This document shows positions 5,605-27,754 of a stretch of 32,000 nt of DNA, one piece after another. Each line of letters begins with the position of its first letter. Within the stretch, counting starts at the first letter, position 1. Source of the DNA: Geobacter sulfurreducens PCA (lineage in GTDB: Bacteria; Desulfobacterota; Desulfuromonadia; Geobacterales; Geobacteraceae); assembly GCF_000007985.2 (NCBI RefSeq), contig NC_002939.5, forward strand, positions 2,400,001 through 2,432,000, written 5' to 3'. The position numbers and the translations under genes are program-made. The notes under the pieces are model-generated. The model searched no databases. It had not been told where the DNA came from and saw only the letters and a list, made by a program, of their open reading frames with translations.

Positions 5605-5742
5605 GCCCCCTTTCCTTGGAGTGACTATTGGTACTCCTACTGAAAGGATACCAGATTACTCCGTTTTTTTCACGGGGGCCGAGCGGGAAAGAAGGGGTTG
5701 CATATGAAAAGGGCGCCGTTGCCGGCGCCCTTTGCGGTGTGT

Positions 5743-8789
<3,047 letters not shown>

Positions 8790-12098: not shown

Positions 12099-12319
12099 AG
12101 CTGGAATGTTTAAGTATCACGATTATGTGAATGCGATTGGCAAAACACGGGGGTCGCTTTAAAATTAACAAAATTTTATGTCAGGCCACCGCTCCCGACA
12201 CGAAGGAGGTGAAGACACAGCATCAATACGGCGGACTCAAACGCATCCCCCCGCCGAAGTATCAAAGCGGTTCGCGGCACGGTAGTTCACTTTTATTGTT
12301 TTATGGGAAAGGAGAGCAC

Positions 12320-13915
12320 ATGAAGCGTATGTCCAAAAAGGTTCTGGCAGCTGCCCTTCTGCTCGGTCTCAGCCAACCGTTCTCGGTTATGGCGGCCGAT
12401 ACCGACCTGCAGAAGAAGATGGAAAGCCTCGAGAAAGAACTTGAGGCCCTGAAGCAGCAGATGCAGGACACCGACAAGAAGGTCGATAAGGTTGAGCAGA
12501 AGTCCCTGGGTCGCTGGCTGACCATCAGCGGGGATTACCGGTTCAGGGTCGACTCTCTCAAGGGCAAAATTGTAGATCACGCCAGCGGTCCTGTGTTCGG
12601 ACAAACATACATGGCAAGGCTACTGGCAGGAGATACCCCCAACGTCGCACAGGCGACAGCTTTTGCCGCATCACAGCAGGCTGGTCAAGGATACAAACCC
12701 AAAAACGACTCTCTTATGACCCACCGCTTCGGGCTTAATCTTAAAGCCAAAGCCACCAAAGATGTTTCTGTCACTGCACGCCTTCTCATGTACAAAACCG
12801 CAGGCGCTCAAGATGATGATGCCGTAACCCCGGGTTACTTTGCAGATCGAACCGGCGTATTCGATGGAACACTTGGCCACATACCTTCTGACGGTCGACT
12901 CGCCGTTGACCGCGCCTACGCGACATGGAGCAACATCGGTGACGAGCCAATTTGGTTCTCAGTTGGTCGTAGGCCCTCAACTGGCGGAGTACCAACTCAC
13001 CTTAAGGAGAACAGGGAAAAACCTGACAGCAGTGGAACTCCTGCGCTTCTAGTTGATTATGCCTTTGACGGCATGACTGTAGGATGGGCGCCTGACCTTG
13101 AGGCGCTACCAGGAGCATATGCTAAGATCTGCTATGGTAGAGGTTTCGAAAACGGATTCACTGGGAAAAACGTCAACAATAGTCTCCATGACACCGACAT
13201 GCTCGGCGTGCAGATTATACCTTATGACACAGATGCACTCAGTATATTTTTCCAGTACAACAGAGGCTTCAACATTTTCGACTTTCCGAAGATGACTAGC
13301 TCAGCATTCGGCGACACGGCTCCAAGTACTGACCTAGGTGCCATCGACTGGTATGGGCTAAACTTCCTAGGCAAAGTAAAGAACATCGGCATTGGTAATT
13401 TCAATTGGTTTGTAAGTGGTGCCATAAGTGACGCTCAACCGAACAAAAATGTATCTGTCGCCGCAGGCAATCTCGGTCTTATGAACGGCACTTTCCTTGG
13501 CCAACAGGATGCAAGCAGCTTCAAGGATCGAACCGGTTGGGCCGTATACGCTGGCGGAAGGTACGACATCGAGTCAACCGGCACCAAACTCGGCTTCGAA
13601 TACAACCATGGTTCCAAAAACTGGATCACCTTTGCTCCGTCTGCCGATGATATGTGGACATCAAAGGTGGGAACCCGAGGCAACGCCTACGAGGGTTACA
13701 TAATTCAAGAACTGAAGCTGCAGCCCATCTCTTCATATCTGAGCAAAGTATTTTTCAAGCTCGGCTATCAGTATTATGATTTTGAGTACACTGGCAGTAA
13801 CAATTGGGTCGGAGCACCCCAAAAAATTGCAGACATTAAAGCTTCCGATCTCCAACTGATGGCTCCAGTTAAATACGCACAAGACATCTATGCAACCTTC
13901 GAGGTACACTTCTAG
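12320..13915 (+). CDS. Outer-membrane beta-barrel protein with N-terminal coiled coil (DUF3373-like porin)
   Basis: ATG at 12320 preceded by GGAAAGGAGAG. The ORF-track extension to 12131 has no support. Signal peptide MKRMSKKVLAAALLLGLSQPFSVMA/AD, a 35-aa heptad-like segment LQKKMESLEKELEALKQQMQDTDKKVDKVEQK, then alternating-polarity strands. The C-terminus YATFEVHF ends in Phe. GC is about 49% against about 61% in the flanks. Confidence 0.7.
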   Translation: MKRMSKKVLAAALLLGLSQPFSVMAADTDLQKKMESLEKELEALKQQMQDTDKKVDKVEQKSLGRWLTISGDYRFRVDSLKGKIVDHASGPVFGQTYMARLLAGDTPNVAQATAFAASQQAGQGYKPKNDSLMTHRFGLNLKAKATKDVSVTARLLMYKTAGAQDDDAVTPGYFADRTGVFDGTLGHIPSDGRLAVDRAYATWSNIGDEPIWFSVGRRPSTGGVPTHLKENREKPDSSGTPALLVDYAFDGMTVGWAPDLEALPGAYAKICYGRGFENGFTGKNVNNSLHDTDMLGVQIIPYDTDALSIFFQYNRGFNIFDFPKMTSSAFGDTAPSTDLGAIDWYGLNFLGKVKNIGIGNFNWFVSGAISDAQPNKNVSVAAGNLGLMNGTFLGQQDASSFKDRTGWAVYAGGRYDIESTGTKLGFEYNHGSKNWITFAPSADDMWTSKVGTRGNAYEGYIIQELKLQPISSYLSKVFFKLGYQYYDFEYTGSNNWVGAPQKIADIKASDLQLMAPVKYAQDIYATFEVHF

Positions 13916-14489: not shown

Positions 14490-15860
14490 ATGAAGAATAC
14501 GACGTTCATCGCCACCCTCATGGCGAGCGTGGCAGTGGCGGCCCTGGTACAGGCCAAGGATCATCCGGGCAAGGAATATATCCAGAAAAACGGCTACCAG
14601 GGGCCGGCAACCTGCGAGGTCTGCCATCCCGGCGCGGCAAAGGAGTTCCTGAACTCCGTGCACTGGAAGCACGCCTCGAAGGTCGACAACGTTGAGAACA
14701 TTGACCCGAAGCAGGAATACGGCATGAAAAACCGTATCTACACCATGTGCAACGGGAACGACATCGTCAACAATCTGAAGGAGATTCCGCCCAGCCCCGA
14801 GACGGGCAAGACCAAGTACTCGGGCTGCAACTCCTGCCATCCCGGGAATCACATCCAGGACGTGGGGAGCACCGGGCCCGAAGCGGAAGCCGCAGTGGAC
14901 TGCCTTGTCTGCCACTCCTCCACCTATGATCACAGCAAGCGCAAGCCCTTCAAAGACGAGAAGGGGAACGTGGTGCTCGGCCAGGATCGCAGCACCGATG
15001 CGGCCCTTTCCATTGCCACCCCGACGGTCAAGAACTGTATGACCTGCCACGAGGCTGCAGGGGGCGGCGTGCTGGTGAAGCGCGGGTTCGCCTTCAACAA
15101 GGAGCACGATGTCCATGCGGCCAAGGGGATGGTCTGCGTCGACTGCCACAAGACGAAGAACCACAAGATCCCCACGGGCTACGATCCGAACAACTGGGCC
15201 CATGACGGCGTACGTCTCTCCTGCACCGACTGCCACACGGCAAAGCCCCACAAGGACGAGGACTACAACCGCCATACGGCGCGCATCGCCTGTCAGACCT
15301 GCCACATCCCCCGGACCGGCGGCGCCTTTGCCAAGGATTTCACGAAGTGGGAACAGCTCTCCAACAAGTTCTACGAGCCGACCACGCTCAAAAAAGAAGC
15401 AAATGAAACGGCTCCCGTCTACGCATGGTACAACCTGACCGTGGCCAACCGCCCTGACTTCATCGGGCCCAAGGGTGACCGCAAGGACGGCAAGAGCAAG
15501 ATCTACCCTTTCAAGATCTTCCAGGGCAAGGCGTACTTTAACAAGAAGGACGGCCAGCTCCTGTCCATGGACTTCGCTCCGCCCATGGCAACGGGTGACA
15601 CCCTCGCCGGCGTGGCATCAGCTGCCAAAATCCTTGGGATCAAGGATTACGAACCGGTCCCCGGCTGGCAGACCATCTACTTCGGCAGCAACCACCAGGT
15701 GGCTCCCAAGGAGAAGGCTCTTACCTGCTATAACTGCCATGCTCCCAACGGCATTCTGAACTTCCGCGAGCTCGGCTATTCGTCCGACGAGGTCAAAAAG
15801 CTCACGAGCCCCGAACTCTACTTTGAGAAAATCGCAGAGAAGATGCGGGAAGAGTGGTAA
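14490..15860 (+). CDS. Octahaem c-type cytochrome, Sec-exported
   Basis: 456 aa, with RBS GAGG 6 nt upstream. Signal peptide ...AALVQA/KD. Eight CXXCH motifs (CEVCH, CNSCH, CLVCH, CMTCH, CVDCH, CTDCH, CQTCH, CYNCH). About 145 haem-free residues separate haems 7 and 8. Confidence 0.9.
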   Translation: MKNTTFIATLMASVAVAALVQAKDHPGKEYIQKNGYQGPATCEVCHPGAAKEFLNSVHWKHASKVDNVENIDPKQEYGMKNRIYTMCNGNDIVNNLKEIPPSPETGKTKYSGCNSCHPGNHIQDVGSTGPEAEAAVDCLVCHSSTYDHSKRKPFKDEKGNVVLGQDRSTDAALSIATPTVKNCMTCHEAAGGGVLVKRGFAFNKEHDVHAAKGMVCVDCHKTKNHKIPTGYDPNNWAHDGVRLSCTDCHTAKPHKDEDYNRHTARIACQTCHIPRTGGAFAKDFTKWEQLSNKFYEPTTLKKEANETAPVYAWYNLTVANRPDFIGPKGDRKDGKSKIYPFKIFQGKAYFNKKDGQLLSMDFAPPMATGDTLAGVASAAKILGIKDYEPVPGWQTIYFGSNHQVAPKEKALTCYNCHAPNGILNFRELGYSSDEVKKLTSPELYFEKIAEKMREEW

Positions 15861-15893
15861 TCGCGACGTAATCTTCAACGTTCCCGATACAAT

Positions 15894-15924
15894 GGGAGGT
15901 GGACCCAGTCCACCTCCTTTTTTT
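15894..15924 (+). terminator. Rho-independent terminator of the octahaem gene
   Basis: GGGAGGTGGAC-CCA-GTCCACCTCC followed by TTTTTTT. Confidence 0.85.
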
Positions 15925-15943
15925 GTGCCCGCCGTCAGGGTAC

Positions 15944-15975
15944 AAAAAAGCCCGCTGCCGCAGGGGCAACGGGCT
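15944..15975 (-). terminator. Rho-independent terminator of the LysR gene
   Basis: On the minus strand AGCCCG-T-TGCC-CCTGC-GGCA-G-CGGGCT is followed by TTTTTTG. It is convergent with the previous terminator. Confidence 0.7.
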
Positions 15976-16002
15976 CCGGTCCGTCATGCACGCACACTTC
16001 TT

Positions 16003-16926
16003 TCAGGTGGGGCAGGAACTTCGGTGACACTGGTCGGTAAACACCGTGTCCAGGCACGCCAGGAAGTCGCTGACCAGCCGATCCTGCACCTTGCTCCTGC
16101 TCAGGGCGACCGTCCGCTGGCGGCTGTGGCAGAATCCCTCGACTCTGTGCTGCTTCAGCTGGCCGTTTTCCAGATATTTATTCACCAGACAGGAGGAAAC
16201 GAACGCCACCCCTCCCCCGTCAAGGACCGTATCGACCGTGAGATGCAGATCGTCATAGACCACGGTGCTCCGGAACCCCTCCAGGTCCTTGCCGATGGAG
16301 GCAAGATTGAGCCTGAGCAGTTTCTTGGAACTGCAGCCGTCCTTGCGCGTGATGAGGCGTTCCTCGAAGAGCCGCTCGATCGTCACGAGCGGAGTGGGGA
16401 TGCCGAGAGACGGCGCGCTCACGAAGACCAGTTCGTCCCGCGGCAGGGTCGCAGTATGGAAATCGGCCAGGTCCAAGTCTTCGCAGTGCTCTATGATACC
16501 GATATCGAACTCCCGTTCGGCCAGCCCCTTTACCGCCTGCTCCGGGCTGTAGAACATGAACTTGAGATCGACGATATCGGCGTTGCGCAGCATGAACCGG
16601 TTGAGAACCTTGGGCATGTGGGCGATGCCGAACGATGGCGTACAGCAGATGGAAAGGCGCTGCCTTCCGGTAAATTTCTTGAGTTCGTCCTGCAGTGTCT
16701 TCTCGATGTCGAGGATGGCCTGGGCCTTCCGTACCACGGCCTCACCTGCAGCGGTGAGCATCATGACAGGACCCGAGCGATCCAGCAACTCGCAGCCGTA
16801 ACGCTCCTCGAGGAACTTGACCCGTTGCGACACCGCAGATTGGGTGATGCACAGCTCTGCAGCGGCCTTGGAAAAACTTCCTTTCTCAGCCGTCACGATG
16901 AGCGTTTTGAGATACAGCGTCTCCAT
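16003..16926 (-). CDS. LysR-family transcriptional regulator
   Basis: The ORF track starts at a TTG (16956). I prefer the ATG at 16926, with GGGAAGG 6 nt upstream, giving METLYLKTLIVTAEKGSFSKAAAELCITQSAVSQRVKFLE, a canonical LysR wHTH. A C-terminal substrate-binding-like domain follows. Confidence 0.9.
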   Translation of the reverse strand: METLYLKTLIVTAEKGSFSKAAAELCITQSAVSQRVKFLEERYGCELLDRSGPVMMLTAAGEAVVRKAQAILDIEKTLQDELKKFTGRQRLSICCTPSFGIAHMPKVLNRFMLRNADIVDLKFMFYSPEQAVKGLAEREFDIGIIEHCEDLDLADFHTATLPRDELVFVSAPSLGIPTPLVTIERLFEERLITRKDGCSSKKLLRLNLASIGKDLEGFRSTVVYDDLHLTVDTVLDGGGVAFVSSCLVNKYLENGQLKQHRVEGFCHSRQRTVALSRSKVQDRLVSDFLACLDTVFTDQCHRSSCPT

Positions 16927-17042
16927 ACCAAACCTTCCCGAAAGAAACTTCCCCAACCATCCTCTAGATAACGACCCATCATAAATAAAATTATCGATGC
17001 CGCCGCTGAAGCCGCATTAGAACTGCGTGTTTTTTCATACCT

Positions 17043-17057
17043 ATAAGTTTTGCTTAT
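17043..17057. promoter_or_regulatory. LysR-type T-N11-A dyad (ATAAG-N5-CTTAT)
   Basis: Perfect interrupted palindrome ATAAGTTTTGCTTAT in the 314-bp lysR/decahaem divergent region. It fits the T-N11-A rule and is flanked by a second, roughly concentric dyad: CATTAGAA (17015-22) and TTCTAATG (17080-87). Confidence 0.4.
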
Positions 17058-17240
17058 ACAAACACAAATAAAATGCGGTTTCTAATGTGTGCTTTCAGAA
17101 GTACTATTTGCATTCGTGAAGACGCAATAACCTTGCCACGACCACTAACCCATGGAAGGAGGAAATAGATACCCGATTATCATTCGATATTCTGAATAGT
17201 TAGAAATTCCAAGAACAACACACCAACGAAAGGAGCAACC

Positions 17241-18332
17241 ATGCGAAACAAGCTGTATGGCGTGAAAGCGCTAAAAATGGCCGGAATGGTCGCGATTTCG
17301 CTGCTTGTCGGTGCCTGCGCCACCGGGAAGATCAGGGAACGGGTCCTGACATTGCCGACCATCGAAGGCGCTTCGTACGTCGGCGACACAGACTGTGCCC
17401 AGTGCCATGACAAGATCGCGGCACCCTTCGTCCGGAGTATTCACGGCCGGATCGCCGACTTCGAAGTGATGGGGGGAACCAGGGGATGCGAGTCATGCCA
17501 CGGTGCCGCCAGCCTTCACACCACGGAAGGAGATTCCGCCAAGATTCTTTCGTTCGCAAGCCTGTCGTCGGACCAGGCATCTGCCGTCTGCCTCAAATGC
17601 CACTCGGCCGGCACCCACATGGAGTGGGCAGGCAACGAACATGCCCTCAACGATGTGGCCTGCACCGACTGTCATAAAATCCACCAGGACAAGACCGTTG
17701 CCCCGCACAGCCTGAAAATGGCACAGCCCGAGCTCTGCTACTCCTGCCATCAGGAGTATCGCGCAAAGGCCAACTTCCCTTCCCACCATCCCATCCGAGA
17801 GGGGAAAATGACCTGCACGAGCTGCCACGAAGCCCACGGTTCCGGCCAGAAGAACCTGAAGACCGAGGAGCGGGTGAACGACCTCTGCCTTAACTGCCAC
17901 AGCCGCTACCAGGGGCCCTTCGTCTTCGAGCATGCGCCGGTCCAGGAAGACTGCACCATCTGTCATGACGCACACGGCACCGTAGCCAACAACCTGCTTC
18001 GCCAGAGCGAGCCCTTCCTCTGCCTCCAGTGCCACGAGAGCCACTTCCACATCACCCGCGAGGGAGCCACGATCCCGGCGGGCAATGTCGCCCTTGACGC
18101 CAACAAGGACGGGGGCACCACCTACCCTGCCGGCCAGACGATCAGCTCATCCAACAGCGTAACCATGCCGAACAATCTCGGCGCTGAAGGATGGCGGATG
18201 GCCTTCGGCACCAAGTGCAGCGTATGCCACACCCAGGTGCACGGCAGCGACCTTCCCTCCCAGACCGCACCCACGGTCAACAGCACCGGCACCAGGGGAT
18301 GGCCGTCCGGCGGCAAGGGATTGACCCGCTAA
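17241..18332 (+). CDS. Decahaem c-type cytochrome, MtrA/DmsE/PioA family, with lipoprotein signal
   Basis: 363 aa, with RBS AAAGGAG 6 nt upstream. Ten CXXCH motifs. Strong resemblance to the Shewanella MtrA blocks I recall (LCYSCH...SHHP....MTCTSCHEAHGS, NDLCLNCH...GPFVFEHAPV.EDCTICHDAHG, LCLQCH, C-terminal CSVCHTQVHGS). The signal peptide ends in the lipobox-like LLVGAC. Confidence 0.9.
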   Translation: MRNKLYGVKALKMAGMVAISLLVGACATGKIRERVLTLPTIEGASYVGDTDCAQCHDKIAAPFVRSIHGRIADFEVMGGTRGCESCHGAASLHTTEGDSAKILSFASLSSDQASAVCLKCHSAGTHMEWAGNEHALNDVACTDCHKIHQDKTVAPHSLKMAQPELCYSCHQEYRAKANFPSHHPIREGKMTCTSCHEAHGSGQKNLKTEERVNDLCLNCHSRYQGPFVFEHAPVQEDCTICHDAHGTVANNLLRQSEPFLCLQCHESHFHITREGATIPAGNVALDANKDGGTTYPAGQTISSSNSVTMPNNLGAEGWRMAFGTKCSVCHTQVHGSDLPSQTAPTVNSTGTRGWPSGGKGLTR

Positions 18333-18356
18333 CAACTTCTAGAGAAAGGAGCTTCT

Positions 18357-20384
18357 ATGCGACATATCGGTAAATGGCTCATGCCGTTGCCCGTACTGAT
18401 CCTCTGCGCCCCGCTTGCTCTCCTTGCCGAGGAAGGTCACAAGCCCTTCTCGGCCACCATGGAAACGGGTGGAGCGGGGCTTGCGGTCTCCGACGACATC
18501 AGCCGGGTGAACGAATATTCCTCCGTCAGAACCGAGCCCGGCATCAACCCGTACGGCAAGGTCGACATCCAAATCGACAAGGGAGGAGTCGAACTGGACC
18601 TCAACAGCCGCTACCTGGATTCCCGCGACCAGACCCACGGTGCGCGGATCGACGTGAAGCGGTTCTTCAAGAGCAGTTTCAGCTACGATGCCTTCCAGCA
18701 CTGGCTCGACCATGACAAACTCCAGTATCTGGATGCCTCGATCCCGGCTGCACCGGTGGCGGGCGCGTTCGATACCACCGGAGCCATCCTCGGCGTGCCC
18801 ACCGCTACCGGCACCACAAATCTTTACGCGTACACCGCCAACCCGATCGGACCGAACTTCGCGCCCAACTTCCTCGTTACGCGCAGATCCGACGGGGCTC
18901 GCTTCGTAACCAACGTGGCGCCGTCCGACACGGCAACCTATGCCGTTCAGCAACTCGGCCGGGCATCACTGTACGGCGAGGATATGGTTCCGAACCAGGA
19001 CTTTTCCATCGTGCGGCGGGAGTGGAAGAGCAATTCCGACTTCACCATCCCCCAACTGCCCAATCTCACCTTTCACTTCGGTTTCCGGGAGGAGACCCGT
19101 GAAGGGTGGGAGCAATCCATCGGCATGAGCAAGTGCACCTCGTGCCACATTACCGGCCAAAGCAAGCAGATCAGCGAAAGCACCCGCGACCTGACCGCGG
19201 GAGTGACCGGCAAATTCGGTCTCCTGACCATGAACTACACCTATCTGAACCGCCAGTTCCGTGAGAACGGCGCCGATCCGGTCCGCCGCTACGACCCGGC
19301 CCTCTCGCCAGGGGCAGCGCTGCCTGCAAACTACTATACCGGGGCAAACTCCCCCCCCACCTTCGACAACCGGATGCTCTACGATTACCGGGACGGCTAC
19401 CTGCCTTACGACGTGACCCCAGACTCCAACAAGGACAGCCACGTTGTCAAAGCCAAGGTTGATCTTCCCCGGGACACCACGGTCTTTGCCAGCTACGTGA
19501 AAGCAACGGTGGATAGCGACAAATCGGACGATCCCGGCTACTTCACCCTGGACAAGAAGACCCTCGAATCCGAGTATGACGCCTGGAGCGGCAAGGTCAG
19601 CACCACTCTCTGGAAACGACTGACTCTCACTCTTCGGGGCAAGCTGGAAAAACTCCAGGATGACGACGTGGCCATCACCTACACGCCCATCGCCTACAAC
19701 GACGGCAATGCCGCCAATGACATCTTCGGCTTCCCCGGCGCCACGGCTTCGGACATCCTGATGCTGCAAACCATCAACCGCCACTCCAGCGCATCGCGCG
19801 ACGTGGCGACCCTGGGGCTCGACTCGGTCTACCGCCTGGCGAAGCGAACCACCCTCCGCCTCTCCTACGAGTTCAAAAACGAGGATCGCGACGACTCCTT
19901 CTTCGGCACAACCAAGACGCACACCGTCAAGGCCGCCCTCAACGCCAGGCCCACCAATACCCTTTCGGCCCGGGCAAGCTACACCTTCAAGGCCATCGAA
20001 AACCCTTTCCAGAACCCAACCGCCGGGCTGGTCCCCTTCACCCAGTCGGCCAGCGGCTACGGCTACCTGGTGGGCAACGGCCCCACCTATGGCGTTGAGT
20101 TTTACGACCGCAGGACTGCCGACCTGACCAACCGCCCCGACACGGTCCACGAGGGGAGCCTTTCCACCACCTGGTCCCCCTCGCCGCGCTTCTCCGCCAC
20201 GGCCTTCGTGCGGGTGAAGAATGAAAGCAACGACCTGAATAAAACCACCTGGAAACAGGAGACTTACGTGCCGGGCGTATCGCTCTGGTACGCCCCCTCG
20301 GACAAGGTGAGCATGACCCTGGCATACACCTATCTCAAGCAGACGACCGAGAATTCAATGTGCCAGGGGCTTTACGACGGCTGA
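18357..20384 (+). CDS. MtrB/PioB-like outer-membrane beta-barrel, N-terminal 675 codons up to the in-frame TGA
   Basis: RBS AAAGGAG 6 nt upstream, 24 nt after the decahaem stop. Signal peptide ...APLALLA/EE. Long run of amphipathic strands. Internal CTSCH at aa 260-264. As written it ends ...CQGLYDG with no OMP beta-signal. Confidence 0.75.
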   Translation: MRHIGKWLMPLPVLILCAPLALLAEEGHKPFSATMETGGAGLAVSDDISRVNEYSSVRTEPGINPYGKVDIQIDKGGVELDLNSRYLDSRDQTHGARIDVKRFFKSSFSYDAFQHWLDHDKLQYLDASIPAAPVAGAFDTTGAILGVPTATGTTNLYAYTANPIGPNFAPNFLVTRRSDGARFVTNVAPSDTATYAVQQLGRASLYGEDMVPNQDFSIVRREWKSNSDFTIPQLPNLTFHFGFREETREGWEQSIGMSKCTSCHITGQSKQISESTRDLTAGVTGKFGLLTMNYTYLNRQFRENGADPVRRYDPALSPGAALPANYYTGANSPPTFDNRMLYDYRDGYLPYDVTPDSNKDSHVVKAKVDLPRDTTVFASYVKATVDSDKSDDPGYFTLDKKTLESEYDAWSGKVSTTLWKRLTLTLRGKLEKLQDDDVAITYTPIAYNDGNAANDIFGFPGATASDILMLQTINRHSSASRDVATLGLDSVYRLAKRTTLRLSYEFKNEDRDDSFFGTTKTHTVKAALNARPTNTLSARASYTFKAIENPFQNPTAGLVPFTQSASGYGYLVGNGPTYGVEFYDRRTADLTNRPDTVHEGSLSTTWSPSPRFSATAFVRVKNESNDLNKTTWKQETYVPGVSLWYAPSDKVSMTLAYTYLKQTTENSMCQGLYDG

Positions 20385-20822
20385 GCGGGCATCATCGTAT
20401 CGGGCCAGTTTGGCTCGACTTGTGACGAATACCAGTACGACACCGACGTCCACACGGTATCGCTCACCACAAACTATGACGCAACCGAGAAGCTCAAGCT
20501 CTTCGCCAATGCCATGTACAACGACGCCGAAGCCCGCATGAACGGCCTCTATTTCCCCTCGTTCGCGGAACTCGGCTACACGGACCCGGTCCTCACCTCC
20601 GCCTTCTACGGTCTGCAAAACCTGCCGCGCATCCAGGAGTATTCCGACCTCCGCTACCGGCAGATCGACCTGAGCGCCGGGGGAACGTACCAATTCACCC
20701 CCAATCTTTTCATGACCGCCCAGGCCGGATTCCAGCAGTTCATGGACGATGCCCCCTATGTCTACGGTGACCAGGACGGCATCACCTACACCGGGTCGGT
20801 CGGAATCGGTTATAAGTTCTAG
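20385..20822 (+). CDS. In-frame C-terminal continuation of the same barrel (145 codons) carrying the beta-signal
   Basis: Same frame as 18357..20384, with no stop between 20385 and 20820. GC3 of the 44 codons from 20385 through the first ATG (20514-20516) is about 77% (34/44), which is coding-like. No SD precedes the ATG at 20514. Ends ...YTGSVGIGYKF, a typical OMP C-terminus, and the strong terminator comes only after it. Confidence 0.6.
   Translation, partial: AGIIVSGQFGSTCDEYQYDTDVHTVSLTTNYDATEKLKLFANAMYNDAEARMNGLYFPSFAELGYTDPVLTSAFYGLQNLPRIQEYSDLRYRQIDLSAGGTYQFTPNLFMTAQAGFQQFMDDAPYVYGDQDGITYTGSVGIGYKF
20395..20428 (+). other. SECIS-like hairpin downstream of the in-frame TGA
   Basis: Apical hairpin U-CGGGCC-AGUUU-GGCUCG-A (20400-20418: 7 bp with one G.U, pentaloop containing GU, loop G 26 nt from the U of UGA). 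A 4-bp lower stem UCGU/ACGA (20395-98 with 20425-28) lies across an asymmetric internal loop. Confidence 0.3.
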
Positions 20823-20863
20823 ATCGGCGTGCCCTTCAGGGGCCTCCTTCCTGGAATGTCATC

Positions 20864-20891
20864 GGGCGGACCGAACGGTCCGCCCTTTTTT
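20864..20891 (+). terminator. Rho-independent terminator of the decahaem/barrel operon
   Basis: GGGCGGACC-GAAC-GGTCCGCCC followed by TTTTTT. Confidence 0.85.
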
Positions 20892-20936
20892 GTCCGTCGC
20901 CGAAGAGCGAGACACTGGCGAAAAGGTATTTTGGGC

Positions 20937-20966
20937 TTGACAGTATCGTCTGCTCGGTGCTATTTA
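20937..20966 (+). promoter_or_regulatory. Sigma70-type promoter of rpsT
   Basis: TTGACA (20937-42), an 18-nt spacer ending in TGC, then TATTTA (20961-66), i.e. an extended -10 TGnTATTTA. Confidence 0.5.
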
Positions 20967-21033
20967 AATACCTTTCGAAAACGAAGAAATCACTCCTCGA
21001 ACGATACTCAATAGAATTACATGGAGGTGCAGT

Positions 21034-21297
21034 TTGGCTCACCACAAATCGGCCCTGAAGAGAATCAAGCAGAACAAGAAGAAGTACCTGAGGAACAAGC
21101 ACATCCGCTCTACCCTGCGGACCTTCATAAAGCGCGTGCGCGAGGCTGTTGAGGCCAAGAATGCGGACCAGGCCCGGCAAGCCCTGCTGGCCGCCATCCC
21201 GGTCATCGACAAGGCGGCCTCCAAAGGGGTCATTCATGCCTCCAATGCTTCCCGGAACGTCTCCCGCCTGACAAAGCTCGTCAACACCCTCGGCTAG
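21034..21297 (+). CDS. rpsT: 30S ribosomal protein S20
   Basis: 87 aa with TTG start and GGAGGTG 4 nt upstream. [16 protein letters not shown]... is the canonical S20 N-terminus. Confidence 0.95.
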
Positions 21298-25524: not shown

Positions 25525-27660
25525 TCAGTAGAGCCGCTGGTGGCACCTGACGCAGTTGACCGGATCGCTAACGGTGAAGGCCATGCTGAAGCCGTGGCAG
25601 GCACCGCAGGATTTGCCCTGCTCCATCTCCTTCATGGTGGAGGATTTCCGGCCGGCCCCGGCGGTGACGATCGTGCCGTGGCAGTCGCTGCAGGCGTATC
25701 CCTTGGCGGTGTGGTTGCGGTGGCTGAACAGAACGCTCCCCACGTCGGCGGGGAGATCGTACTTGATCCCCTTGGTGGCGGGATGGCACCTGTCGCAGCC
25801 GGCGGTGACGGGAAACGCAGCCGATCCGTCGTGACAGGCGCCGCAGGAGGTGCCCCTCTCCATCTCCGCCATGGTAACGCGCCGGTTGTCGGGACCGGGC
25901 CGGTAGAGGGCATCGTGACAGTCACCGCAGCCATGTACCTTGAGATGGACGTCATGGCTGAAGCGGGCGCCGGACGGCGTAAAGGGGATGTCTTTCACCG
26001 GGTGGCATCTGGTGCAGTTCTCCCTGACGGTGAAGGCGACCTTGCCGTCGTGGCAGGCGCCGCAGGACTCGCCCTTCTCCATGGCGGCCATAGTGACACG
26101 CCGGGCCGTGACTCCGGCGCCGACGACGGCATTGTGACAGTCCACGCAGGAATAGAGGGCCGTATGGGAGCTGTGGCTGAATCGGGTTATGCCGGTCTGT
26201 TTTACGGGGATGGCCACCTCTACGGTCTCCCGGTGGCACGCGCCGCACTTCCCGCGGACCGAGAAGGCGGATGTGCCGTCATGGCAGGCGCCGCAGGAAT
26301 TCCCCTGTTCCATCTGGGGCATGGTCCACCGGCGGTTGCCGGGGCCGGCCTTGAACAGATCGTTGTGACAGTCGCCGCAGGTGTTGGCCTCCAGATGTTT
26401 CACATGGGGAAAATACGAATTGGCCGCCATGTTCACGTCGCGCAGGGGGTGGCATCTGCTGCAGCTGTCCGCGGCCGTTGCCGGGAAGGCGCTTTTACCG
26501 TCGTGACAGGCGCCGCACGACAAGCCCTTGCCCATGTCGGCCATGGTGGCGCCCACACGGGCCGCACCGGTGGTGAAAATGCCGTTGTGGCAGTCGCCGC
26601 AGCCATACATCTGCCGGTGCGCGTCGTGACTGAAGACCACATTCCCCGCCACGGCCGTCCTGAAGCTGACATCACGGGTCTTCGGGTGACAGCGGTCACA
26701 GTTGCCGGTCACACCGAAAACGGTCTTATCCTCGTGGCAGACGCCACAGGAACGCCCCTGTTCCATATCCTTCATGGTGTAACGCCTGCTGGCGGCCCCG
26801 CCGATAAAGATGCCGCTGTGGCAGCTGTCGCAGTTGAGGAGCTGTGTGTGGAGCTTGTGGCTGAACATGGCGTCGTGGGCGGCGAAGGACACCTCCCTCA
26901 CATTGGCGTGACACCGGTCGCAATCCCCCTTGACCGAGAAGGCGGTATTGCCGTTGTGGCACCCCCCGCATGATTTTTGAGTCTCCATCTCCTGCATGGT
27001 ATAGCGCCGGCTGTCAGGGCCGGCCGTGAAAAGCCTCCCGTGGCACTCGCCACAGCCGTAGCCGGCTGCCAGATGGAGCGTGTGACTGAACGTAGCTGAT
27101 GCCGCAAAGGTGATGTCACGGACCACATGGCACCTGGTGCAGTCCCCCTTGACCGAAAAGGCAGTGCTGCCGTCATGGCAGGCGCCGCACGATTTCCCCT
27201 GCTCCATGGCCTTCATGGATACATTGGGGTTGTTGGTTGCCGCCCTGAAGACGGCATTGTGGCAATCGGCACATCCGTAGGCCCCGAGGCCCAGATGGAA
27301 GGCGTGGCTGAAGACCACTGCGCCGAAGTTGGGGATGTCGATGGGGACTTCTTTGGTCACATGACAGCGGGTGCACGCCGGCAGGCCGAAGGCGCGCTTG
27401 CCGTTGTGGCAGGCGCCGCACGAAGCACCCTGCTCCATGGCCTTCATGGTGACCGGCGCAGCCTTATCGCCAATCTTGAAGAGCGTGTTGTGGCAAAGGG
27501 TGCAGTTGTTGCCCAGGGACTTGAGGTGAACGGGGTGGCTGAAGGCAACCGTGCCCGCGGTCTCAGTGGCGAACGTGACGATCTTGTAGTCACGGGCAAA
27601 GAGAATGACGGGAAGAAACAAAAGCACGATGGCAGGGACAAGAAGGCGTAGGCGTTTCAC
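25525..27660 (-). CDS. 27-haem c-type cytochrome, polymer of nine c7-type triheme domains
   Basis: 27 CXXCH motifs counted. The ORF-track start is a TTG at 27699. I prefer the GTG at 27660 (GGGAG 5 nt upstream), giving the signal peptide (M)[23 protein letters not shown]. Matches my recollection of G. sulfurreducens GSU2210. Confidence 0.9.
25540..27591 (-). repeat. Nine tandem repeats of about 225-240 nt, each encoding one triheme c7-like domain
   Basis: Each unit reads FSH..H - CxxCH - TM..ME.G.SCG.CH - ...C.RCH. The block (T/S)M..M(E/G)....SCGxCH occurs nine times ([135 protein letters not shown]). Confidence 0.9.
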
Positions 27661-27754
27661 GGGAACTCCCGGATGAGTGAGGAGTAGACGCGCCGGCAAT
27701 CCGGCGGCGACTCATCGTTTTTTTCCCGGCATGCGGCGCGCGGATTCCAGTGGG

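Follow-up and report, generated by a model that had tools for sequence, protein, structure and literature searches.

A conserved in-frame UGA followed by a putative SECIS element in the predicted outer-membrane barrel gene of the GSU2204 family in Geobacter sulfurreducens

Introduction

Among the closest described systems to the locus treated here is the MtrCAB conduit of Shewanella, in which the large barrel MtrB (6R2Q chain B; PF11854) partners an MtrA/DmsE-type decahaem cytochrome and is built of 26 strands with tight periplasmic turns and long surface loops (PMC7198977). The locus lies in a stretch of 32,000 nucleotides from Geobacter sulfurreducens PCA (contig NC_002939.5, positions 2,400,001 to 2,432,000), referred to below as the window, and comprises a decahaem cytochrome gene and, directly downstream, a barrel gene of the GSU2204 family whose reading frame contains an internal TGA. 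The predicted barrel resembles MtrB in its decahaem partner, its tight periplasmic turns and its long extracellular loops. It differs in having a CXXCH motif and a putative selenocysteine (Sec), both of which MtrB lacks, and, unlike in MtrCAB, no gene for an MtrC-type outer cytochrome is conserved beside the decahaem-barrel pair.

Two further systems serve for comparison. The bacterial Sec insertion sequence (SECIS), as described by the bSECISearch model and with E. coli fdhF as its prototype, is a coding-region stem-loop just 3' of the UGA, whose small apical loop has an N1-N2 closing pair and contains a G followed by a U. ExtKL (GSU2937-2936, NF040886) is likewise a predicted Sec protein of Geobacter extracellular electron transfer and was first annotated as two genes split at the UGA (PMC5877670; Table 1 of PMC13188914); unlike the barrel of the window, to which it shows no sequence relationship, it is a multihaem cytochrome of soluble or lipoprotein type. 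At least 8 selenoprotein genes have been reported in G. sulfurreducens (PMC5877670).

Predicted recoding in this barrel family is already known. The GSU2204 family is curated as a predicted selenoprotein in NCBIfam NF041027, a database entry that models only the part before the Sec, and it appears with one Sec and the representative WP_272940843.1 in Table 1 of a 2026 selenoproteome review (PMC13188914), which credits it to PMC2398784 (its reference 61), a paper whose main text does not mention the family. In addition, a product of 821 aa is already annotated behind the identical decahaem gene in CP072789.1, a chromosome record of NCBI, and NCBI names homologues from metagenome-assembled genomes (MAGs) according to the (seleno)protein family. 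An earlier note on this stretch, in which a selenoprotein in the outer-membrane barrel of an electron conduit was considered new, was therefore wrong on this point. As for expression, a transcriptome study reports GSU2203 and GSU2204 to be up-regulated, about 2.4-2.7-fold with haematite and also with magnetite (PMC4070692). The comparative detail added here comprises the universal presence of the TGA in 62 loci, a covarying putative SECIS element with frozen synonymous sites, the identification of rare Cys forms, and a predicted 26-strand barrel topology in which the Sec falls in an extracellular loop.

Results

The barrel frame stays open past an in-frame UGA

The open reading frame (ORF) 18357..20384 on the + strand, of 675 codons, is closed by an in-frame TGA at 20382-84, and the same frame remains open for 145 more codons up to a TAG at 20820-22. 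Considering the comparative evidence given below, we read this UGA as a selenocysteine codon whose decoding is directed by a SECIS element, with a probability of about 0.9. The peptide around it would read ...NSMCQGLYDG-U-AGIIVSGQFGSTCDEYQYDTDVHTVSLTTNYDATEK, the residues directly after the Sec in the junction peptide GLYDG-U being AGIIVSGQFGSTC. The GC content at third codon positions (GC3) is 0.81 both before (piece 1) and after (piece 2) the TGA, compared with 0.54 and 0.39 in the other two frames of piece 2, and is 0.77 over the 43 codons between the TGA and the first ATG (20385-20513). Inspection of the sequence 5' of this ATG, at 20514, revealed no GGAGG-like or Shine-Dalgarno motif, and the single terminator-like site on the + strand within 16900-21100 lies after piece 2 (20864-20885 plus a T run). 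The earlier note had described the interrupted frame, a coding-like GC3 of about 77% ahead of the ATG, the missing Shine-Dalgarno motif, the only terminator after the second piece and a Cys at -7 and at +13 of the UGA (20361-63 and 20421-23), and all of this was borne out.

The read-through product, a precursor of 821 aa, was computed at 91.1 kDa, and at about 88.5 kDa without its predicted 24-aa signal peptide; the product ending at the UGA was computed at 72.2 kDa. Automatic gene callers split the gene into ORFs of 675 and 102 aa. Since the internal stop would be a conserved Sec codon with its own RNA signal, the barrel gene appears intact, and the two called ORFs would represent a single gene for 821 aa; where a pipeline divides it, the annotation wrongly shows a truncated porin next to a "hypothetical protein".

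The TGA and the downstream piece are conserved among orthologues

The read-through protein was searched against 5.8 billion proteins, giving 102 clusters of 34-99% identity, each covering about 80% of the query, and 101 of these share one terminal motif, ...C-[QVI]-G-[WLFY]-Y-[DH]-G, and end just before the UGA. At the DNA level, 68 orthologous loci were taken from species-representative genomes (Geobacter, Desulfuromonas, Desulfuromusa including D. kysingii DSM 7343, Trichloromonas, Geopsychrobacteraceae and related MAGs). The UGA column is reached in 62 of these Desulfuromonadales loci (28-61% identity) and is TGA in every one of them. Because the true 3' stops of the same genes are mixed (TAA 30, TAG 16, TGA 14), this exclusive use of TGA at the internal position is not an effect of codon usage. 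The exact 675-aa ORF was found again in independent assemblies from public databases, in about 108 blocks.

In 56 of the 62 loci the frame continues beyond the TGA for about 140-165 codons. Piece 2 is as conserved as piece 1, with mean identities to the protein of the window of 42% vs 39% over 49 loci (r = 0.77), and the C-terminal signal of outer-membrane proteins, G-x-x-F, ends 56 of 60 ortholog copies. In the databases piece 2 is present almost wholly as short fragment ORFs, a word-index search returning lengths of 95-143 aa only.

Two observations on these loci are added here. In four MAG loci (L043, L060, L064, L066) the frame breaks early after the TGA (17-100 codons) and the barrel or the decahaem protein is spread over several ORFs, which probably reflects indel errors in long-read MAGs or decaying copies. 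The base 3' of the UGA is G in 55 of 55 sequences and the following codon (20385-20387, columns 4-6 of the ortholog alignment A2) is GCG in 49 of 55, which may reflect a context need for Sec decoding or against termination.

A covarying hairpin follows the UGA

A hairpin starts 15 nt 3' of the UGA, with a UGA-to-loop distance of 22 nt. In alignment A2, an ungapped alignment of 55 distinct ortholog sequences, its 7-bp stem corresponds to columns 19-25 with 31-37, and 95.3% of the stem cells are paired. The pair 23:33 is CG in 31 sequences, GC in 18, UA in 4 and GU in 2, and is never unpaired; the pair 22:34 is AU in 30, GU in 20, UA in 2 and UG in 2, with a single unpaired case. Neither the observed covariation score nor the percentage paired was reached in any of 500 shuffles, and shifting the 3' partner by 1-3 columns lowers pairing to 16-55%. 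The base in column 33, a synonymous third position within a Gly codon, follows the second base of a variable codon; the selection detected here acts on the RNA and not on the protein. Synonymous sites are also frozen within the hairpin (Ser TCG 55/55, Gln CAG 55/55, Phe TTT 54/54, Ser TCG 48/51), whereas conserved codons just outside it are free to vary (Cys TGC 28 and TGT 26, Glu GAA 30 and GAG 15). Judged from these alignments, the hairpin appears far more than a chance structure.

Bacterial SECIS elements are expected to have a loop of 3-9 nt with a G in its first two positions, a stem of 4-16 bp, a UGA distance of 16-37 nt and a minimum free energy (MFE) of at most -7.5 kcal/mol (PMC13188914). 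The hairpin of the window lies within all four constraints (loop 3-5 nt, stem 7-8 bp, spacing 22 nt, MFE -11.4 kcal/mol), its loop A-G-U-U-U fits the pattern N1-G-[G/U]-N-N2, and the MFE of the ortholog hairpins ranges from -7.9 to -13.1 kcal/mol, with 55 of 55 at or below -7.5. Unlike the bacterial prototype, the stem is short (7-8 bp) and neither a conserved lower stem nor a bulged U was detected. The hairpin proposed in the earlier note consequently stands in its upper stem, which is conserved and covaries, and not in its 4-bp lower extension, given that RNAalifold keeps the upper stem only. Rfam, applied to the window at gathering thresholds, matched no family.

Four loci (L013, L016, L024, L032) carry insertions of 6-12 residues in the loop between the Sec and the G-S-x-C motif, yet a hairpin still forms in each of them, relocated and of partly different sequence. 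These relocated hairpins (about 5726-5880 per locus) have loops that are AGUCU or contain GUU, not AGUUU, and could be natural SECIS variants within one family.

Rare relatives carry cysteine at the Sec column

An exhaustive phmmer search with piece 2 against 1.84 billion representative proteins gave 80 hits, almost all of them short fragments and 6 longer. The candidates for a sense codon at the UGA column were P0130, P0152, P0167 and P0188; P0152 is a 316-aa partial sequence with a full-length cluster member, P0194. P0130, a 725-aa protein from a metagenome, aligns with the protein of the window by BLASTP at 31% identity over 633 residues (E = 3e-80), and this alignment is gapless over the junction, with the Sec facing a Cys (LYDG-U-AGIIVSG vs VLEG-C-GGGIIGG). 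MAFFT places Cys at the Sec column in P0130 and P0194 alike, and Gly and Ser in the more distant P0167 and P0188. Both Cys forms match NF041027 at 540-549 bits, and their genes lie directly 3' of a gene for a 313-aa multihaem (decahaem-like) cytochrome; their codon at the column is TGC and the hairpin is absent. Alignment of the orthologous column had been proposed in the earlier note as a check of the Sec reading, and its outcome is TGA in 62 of 62 orthologous loci and Cys, encoded by TGC, in rare distant members.

The Cys forms are rare, with 2 clusters among the 80 hits, and this near absence of Cys variants suggests that the selenol is functionally required. Cys-7 and Cys+13 are both missing from P0130 and P0194, which argues that the Sec/Cys residue itself is essential. 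The CXXCH motif (C260, C263, H264) is invariant in 96 sequences and is also retained in the distant Cys and Gly forms.

Two other proteins, P0131 (1041 aa) and P0176 (852 aa), match only residues ~90-141 of piece 2, and do so as repeats, in 9 and 6 separate stretches respectively, a pattern that points to a repeating beta-hairpin unit akin to the final barrel strands.

The product is predicted to be an MtrB-like barrel of 26 strands

The protein of the window matches NF041027, named 'GSU2204 family CXXCH-containing (seleno)protein' (model GSU2204_Se_pt_1), with 645.3 bits vs a cutoff of 350 (E = 1e-193). Profile positions 3-580 of 580 correspond to residues 13-675, so that the profile ends at the residue directly before the UGA. 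The other marks of the family are also present, namely the CXXCH motif, the UGA with 145 conserved codons after the part-1 model and the adjacent GSU2203-family decahaem gene. Pfam PF11854 (MtrB_PioB) is matched at 47 bits (gathering threshold 23), and TIGR03509, the model of the MtrB/PioB subfamily, gives 38 bits, below its cutoff of 240. Judged by these profile scores, the barrel is a separate subfamily and not an MtrB/PioB orthologue.

The AlphaFold2 (AF2) model of piece 1, built with 96 sequences, has a predicted local distance difference test score (pLDDT) of 80.3, a predicted template-modelling score (pTM) of 0.76 and 21 long strands; the turns after even strands are all of 7 residues or fewer, and the long loops all follow odd strands. 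Its top Foldseek match in the PDB is 6R2Q_B (MtrB), with E = 5e-13 and TM 0.56, and MtrB was found by this fold search only, a profile search of PDB sequences (alignment A4) giving no match. Piece 2 modelled alone has a pLDDT of 68 and 5 long strands, and the sum of 21 + 5 strands from the two AF2 models, made separately, equals the count of 26 in MtrB. The product is thus best read as a predicted 821-aa, 26-strand MtrB-like outer-membrane barrel. With both termini periplasmic, two features are predicted on the extracellular side: the CXXCH motif, which caps the long hairpin of strands 7 and 8 (loop 4), and Sec676, which sits in the loop of about 31 residues that follows strand 21 (loop 11).

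In the last predicted extracellular loop, the motif Y-V-Y-G-D-Q-D-G (20757-20780; piece 2 residues 125-132) was found to be (nearly) invariant in 13 aligned sequences.

Features of the locus and its neighbourhood

The features of the locus are collected in Table 1.

Table 1. Coordinates of the barrel gene, its recoding signals and the adjacent elements in the window.
Feature	Coordinates	Strand	Description	Evidence or remark
LysR-family regulator	16003..16956	-	divergent, conserved neighbour	Pfam HTH_1 + LysR_substrate
Decahaem partner gene	17241..18332	+	GSU2203 (OmcK)-family, MtrA/DmsE type	ends 24 nt upstream of barrel start
Barrel gene part 1	18357..20381	+	675 codons; signal peptide and predicted strands 1-21	MtrB-like barrel
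CXXCH motif (C260-T-S-C263-H264)	19134..19148	+	candidate c-type haem site	strand 7/8 hairpin tip (predicted extracellular loop 4)
Cys669 codon	20361..20363	+	-7 relative to Sec	invariant in 96 Sec-form sequences
In-frame UGA	20382..20384	+	read as selenocysteine, residue 676 (probable)	ortholog TGA and gapless Cys alignment
Putative SECIS hairpin	20400..20418	+	UCGGGCC-AGUUU-GGCUCGA	stem 20400-20406 / 20412-20418, loop AGUUU 20407-20411
Cys689 codon	20421..20423	+	+13 relative to Sec	Cys in 54/55 aligned loci (TGC 28, TGT 26)
Barrel gene part 2	20385..20822	+	145 codons + TAG; rest of Sec loop, predicted strands 22-26	C-terminal beta-signal ...GIGYKF
Intrinsic terminator of the operon	20864..20893	+	9-bp stem, 8 GC pairs, then TTTTTT	

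The decahaem protein scores 481 bits vs 325 with NF041028 and 245 vs 192 with TIGR03508 (DmsE family decahaem), and its gene lies directly upstream of the barrel gene in every ortholog locus that reaches that far. The genes of the window run in the order guaB, guaA, MiaB, DUF3373, octahaem, LysR, decahaem, barrel, rpsT, holA, lptE, leuS and a nine-triheme-domain protein, which we take to fit the GSU2203/GSU2204 region of G. sulfurreducens or of a near relative.

Two + strand genes that precede the LysR gene in the order of the window encode a DUF3373 protein (12131-13915; PF11853, 537 bits) and an octahaem cytochrome (14490-15860) related to the tetrathionate-reductase family (TIGR04315, 165 bits, below cutoff). 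In locus L005 the decahaem-barrel pair has the octahaem gene beside it, and in L039, L040, L047 and L049 it has the octahaem-DUF3373 pair as neighbour; these genes may form an accessory module of the decahaem-barrel pair. Just after leuS, on the - strand (25525-27699), lies the gene for a 724-aa protein with nine c7-type triheme domains (TIGR04257 'nanowire_3heme', 725 bits, 9 stretches), which would amount to 27 haems.

A scan of the whole window for further in-frame TGAs with coding-like flanks returned only adjacent ordinary genes and antisense frames. The former are leuS, lptE and holA, which share one frame and are separated by TGAs (22925 and 22391, - strand); each belongs to its own family (TIGR00396, PF04390 and TIGR01128, respectively), and they are ordinary neighbours and not a case of recoding. 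An apparent second selenoprotein, the + strand ORF 15823-16971 (382 aa) whose matches are split by stops in many loci, proved to be spurious, being the antisense of the LysR gene 16003-16956; the LysR gene is also called in public contigs, and its antisense translation matches in many loci.

Discussion

The proposal that the barrel of an electron conduit carries a Sec-encoding UGA with a SECIS element is supported by the TGA in 62 of 62 loci, by the compensatory changes at the pairs 23:33 and 22:34, for which the earlier note had suggested to look in orthologues, by the Cys of distant members and by the recurrence of the exact ORF in independent assemblies. Several points weigh against it. The literature searched holds no experimental characterisation of the GSU2204 family and no experimental report of selenium (Se) incorporation into this protein, and selA, selB, selC, selD and a tRNA-Sec were not found within the 32-kb window (ARAGORN: no tRNA). 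The hairpin overlaps the conserved peptide S-x-Q-F-G-S, and constraint on the protein could account for part of the hairpin's conservation. Folded as a single sequence, 20382-20441 is unremarkable (z = -0.27, with 72 of 200 shuffles folding as well), so that the suspicion that such a short hairpin could arise by chance holds for the sequence taken singly; it does not hold on ortholog comparison, where covariation and the frozen synonymous sites speak against chance. Sec forms heavily outnumber Cys forms, the opposite of most selenoprotein families. Finally, the sidedness of the loops and the strand count rest on AF2 secondary structure of two pieces modelled separately, the second with a pLDDT of 68.

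Among the alternatives, read-through in which a near-cognate or suppressor tRNA inserts a standard amino acid (Trp, Cys or Gly) at the UGA would account equally well for the conserved downstream ORF, and Se incorporation is so far a prediction from sequence. Nevertheless, we consider it very improbable: the hairpin shows covariation, and the sequence of its loop, its distance from the UGA and its stability all agree with the bacterial SECIS model; among relatives that are close enough, Cys is the one sense codon seen at the column, which is the classic Sec/Cys signature; use of Sec is known for the lineage (PMC5877670); and sense-codon replacements, which would be common if a standard amino acid sufficed, number 0 in 62 loci.

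Genuine and conserved termination is another explanation, and a similarly faint one. Here the barrel would be split into a 675-aa protein and a separately initiated C-terminal peptide of about 100-145 aa, or else the truncated form would be functional and the hairpin would serve as a pause or attenuation signal. Conservation of a stop is in itself compatible with a conserved gene boundary, and an ATG is present at 20514. However, the internal stop is TGA throughout, whereas TAA and TAG also occur among the true stops of these genes; this ATG lacks a Shine-Dalgarno motif, and the Met is replaced by other residues at the aligned position in many loci; the 43 codons that precede it are conserved, including Cys+13 in 54 of 55 sequences. 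Moreover, the full-length relatives with Cys at the column are single chains, and the beta-signal is found on piece 2 only.

A recent strain-specific nonsense mutation, which would leave a pseudogene or a truncated product only and was the alternative raised in the earlier note, agrees with a single in-frame stop in an otherwise intact gene that automatic callers split in two, and is nonetheless excluded for practical purposes by the TGA at the same column across the order, where 101 of 102 protein clusters end, by the recurrence of the exact ORF in independent assemblies and by a downstream piece constrained as strongly as the upstream one.

Under decoding of the UGA as Sec, the hairpin would act as a bacterial SECIS element, recruiting SelB-GTP-Sec-tRNA(Sec) to the ribosome paused at the UGA, and Sec insertion would allow translation to go on to the TAG, yielding one precursor. 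This precursor would fold as an MtrB-like barrel with 21 strands before the Sec and 5 after it, and with the beta-signal for the beta-barrel assembly machinery (BAM) at its very end, and it would most likely sheathe the co-transcribed MtrA-like decahaem protein, the GSU2203/OmcK homologue. If cells lack selenium, translation would end at the UGA and leave a 72-kDa fragment devoid of strands 22-26 and of the beta-signal; as such a form should not assemble, the supply of selenium could limit the conduit. Sec insertion itself, the topology, the attachment of haem, the chemistry of the Sec and the dependence of assembly on selenium are what we infer from the conserved features described above.

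Given that the Sec loop is predicted to be extracellular, like the tip with the invariant CXXCH motif, Sec676, flanked by Cys669 and Cys689, would most likely be redox-active or ligate a metal or haem at the outer mouth of the conduit. Candidate roles are that of a redox or ligand partner of the CXXCH haem, a selenosulfide with Cys669 or Cys689, and a binding site for metals or metalloids. A more far-reaching idea, which we regard as speculative and rather unlikely, is that the barrel itself bears cofactors, with a c-type haem at the CXXCH of loop 4 and the near-irreplaceable selenol of loop 11 forming the terminal surface reaction site of a two-protein conduit that works without an MtrC-type cytochrome and whose assembly is gated by selenium. 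We know of no characterised precedent for a selenocysteine that works on the external surface of the outer membrane or serves as a haem ligand.

Taken at this strength, the GSU2204 family would equip a decahaem conduit of metal-reducing Desulfuromonadales with an outer-membrane sheath that carries both a Sec and a CXXCH motif, which points to a possible link between selenium supply and extracellular electron transfer in these organisms.

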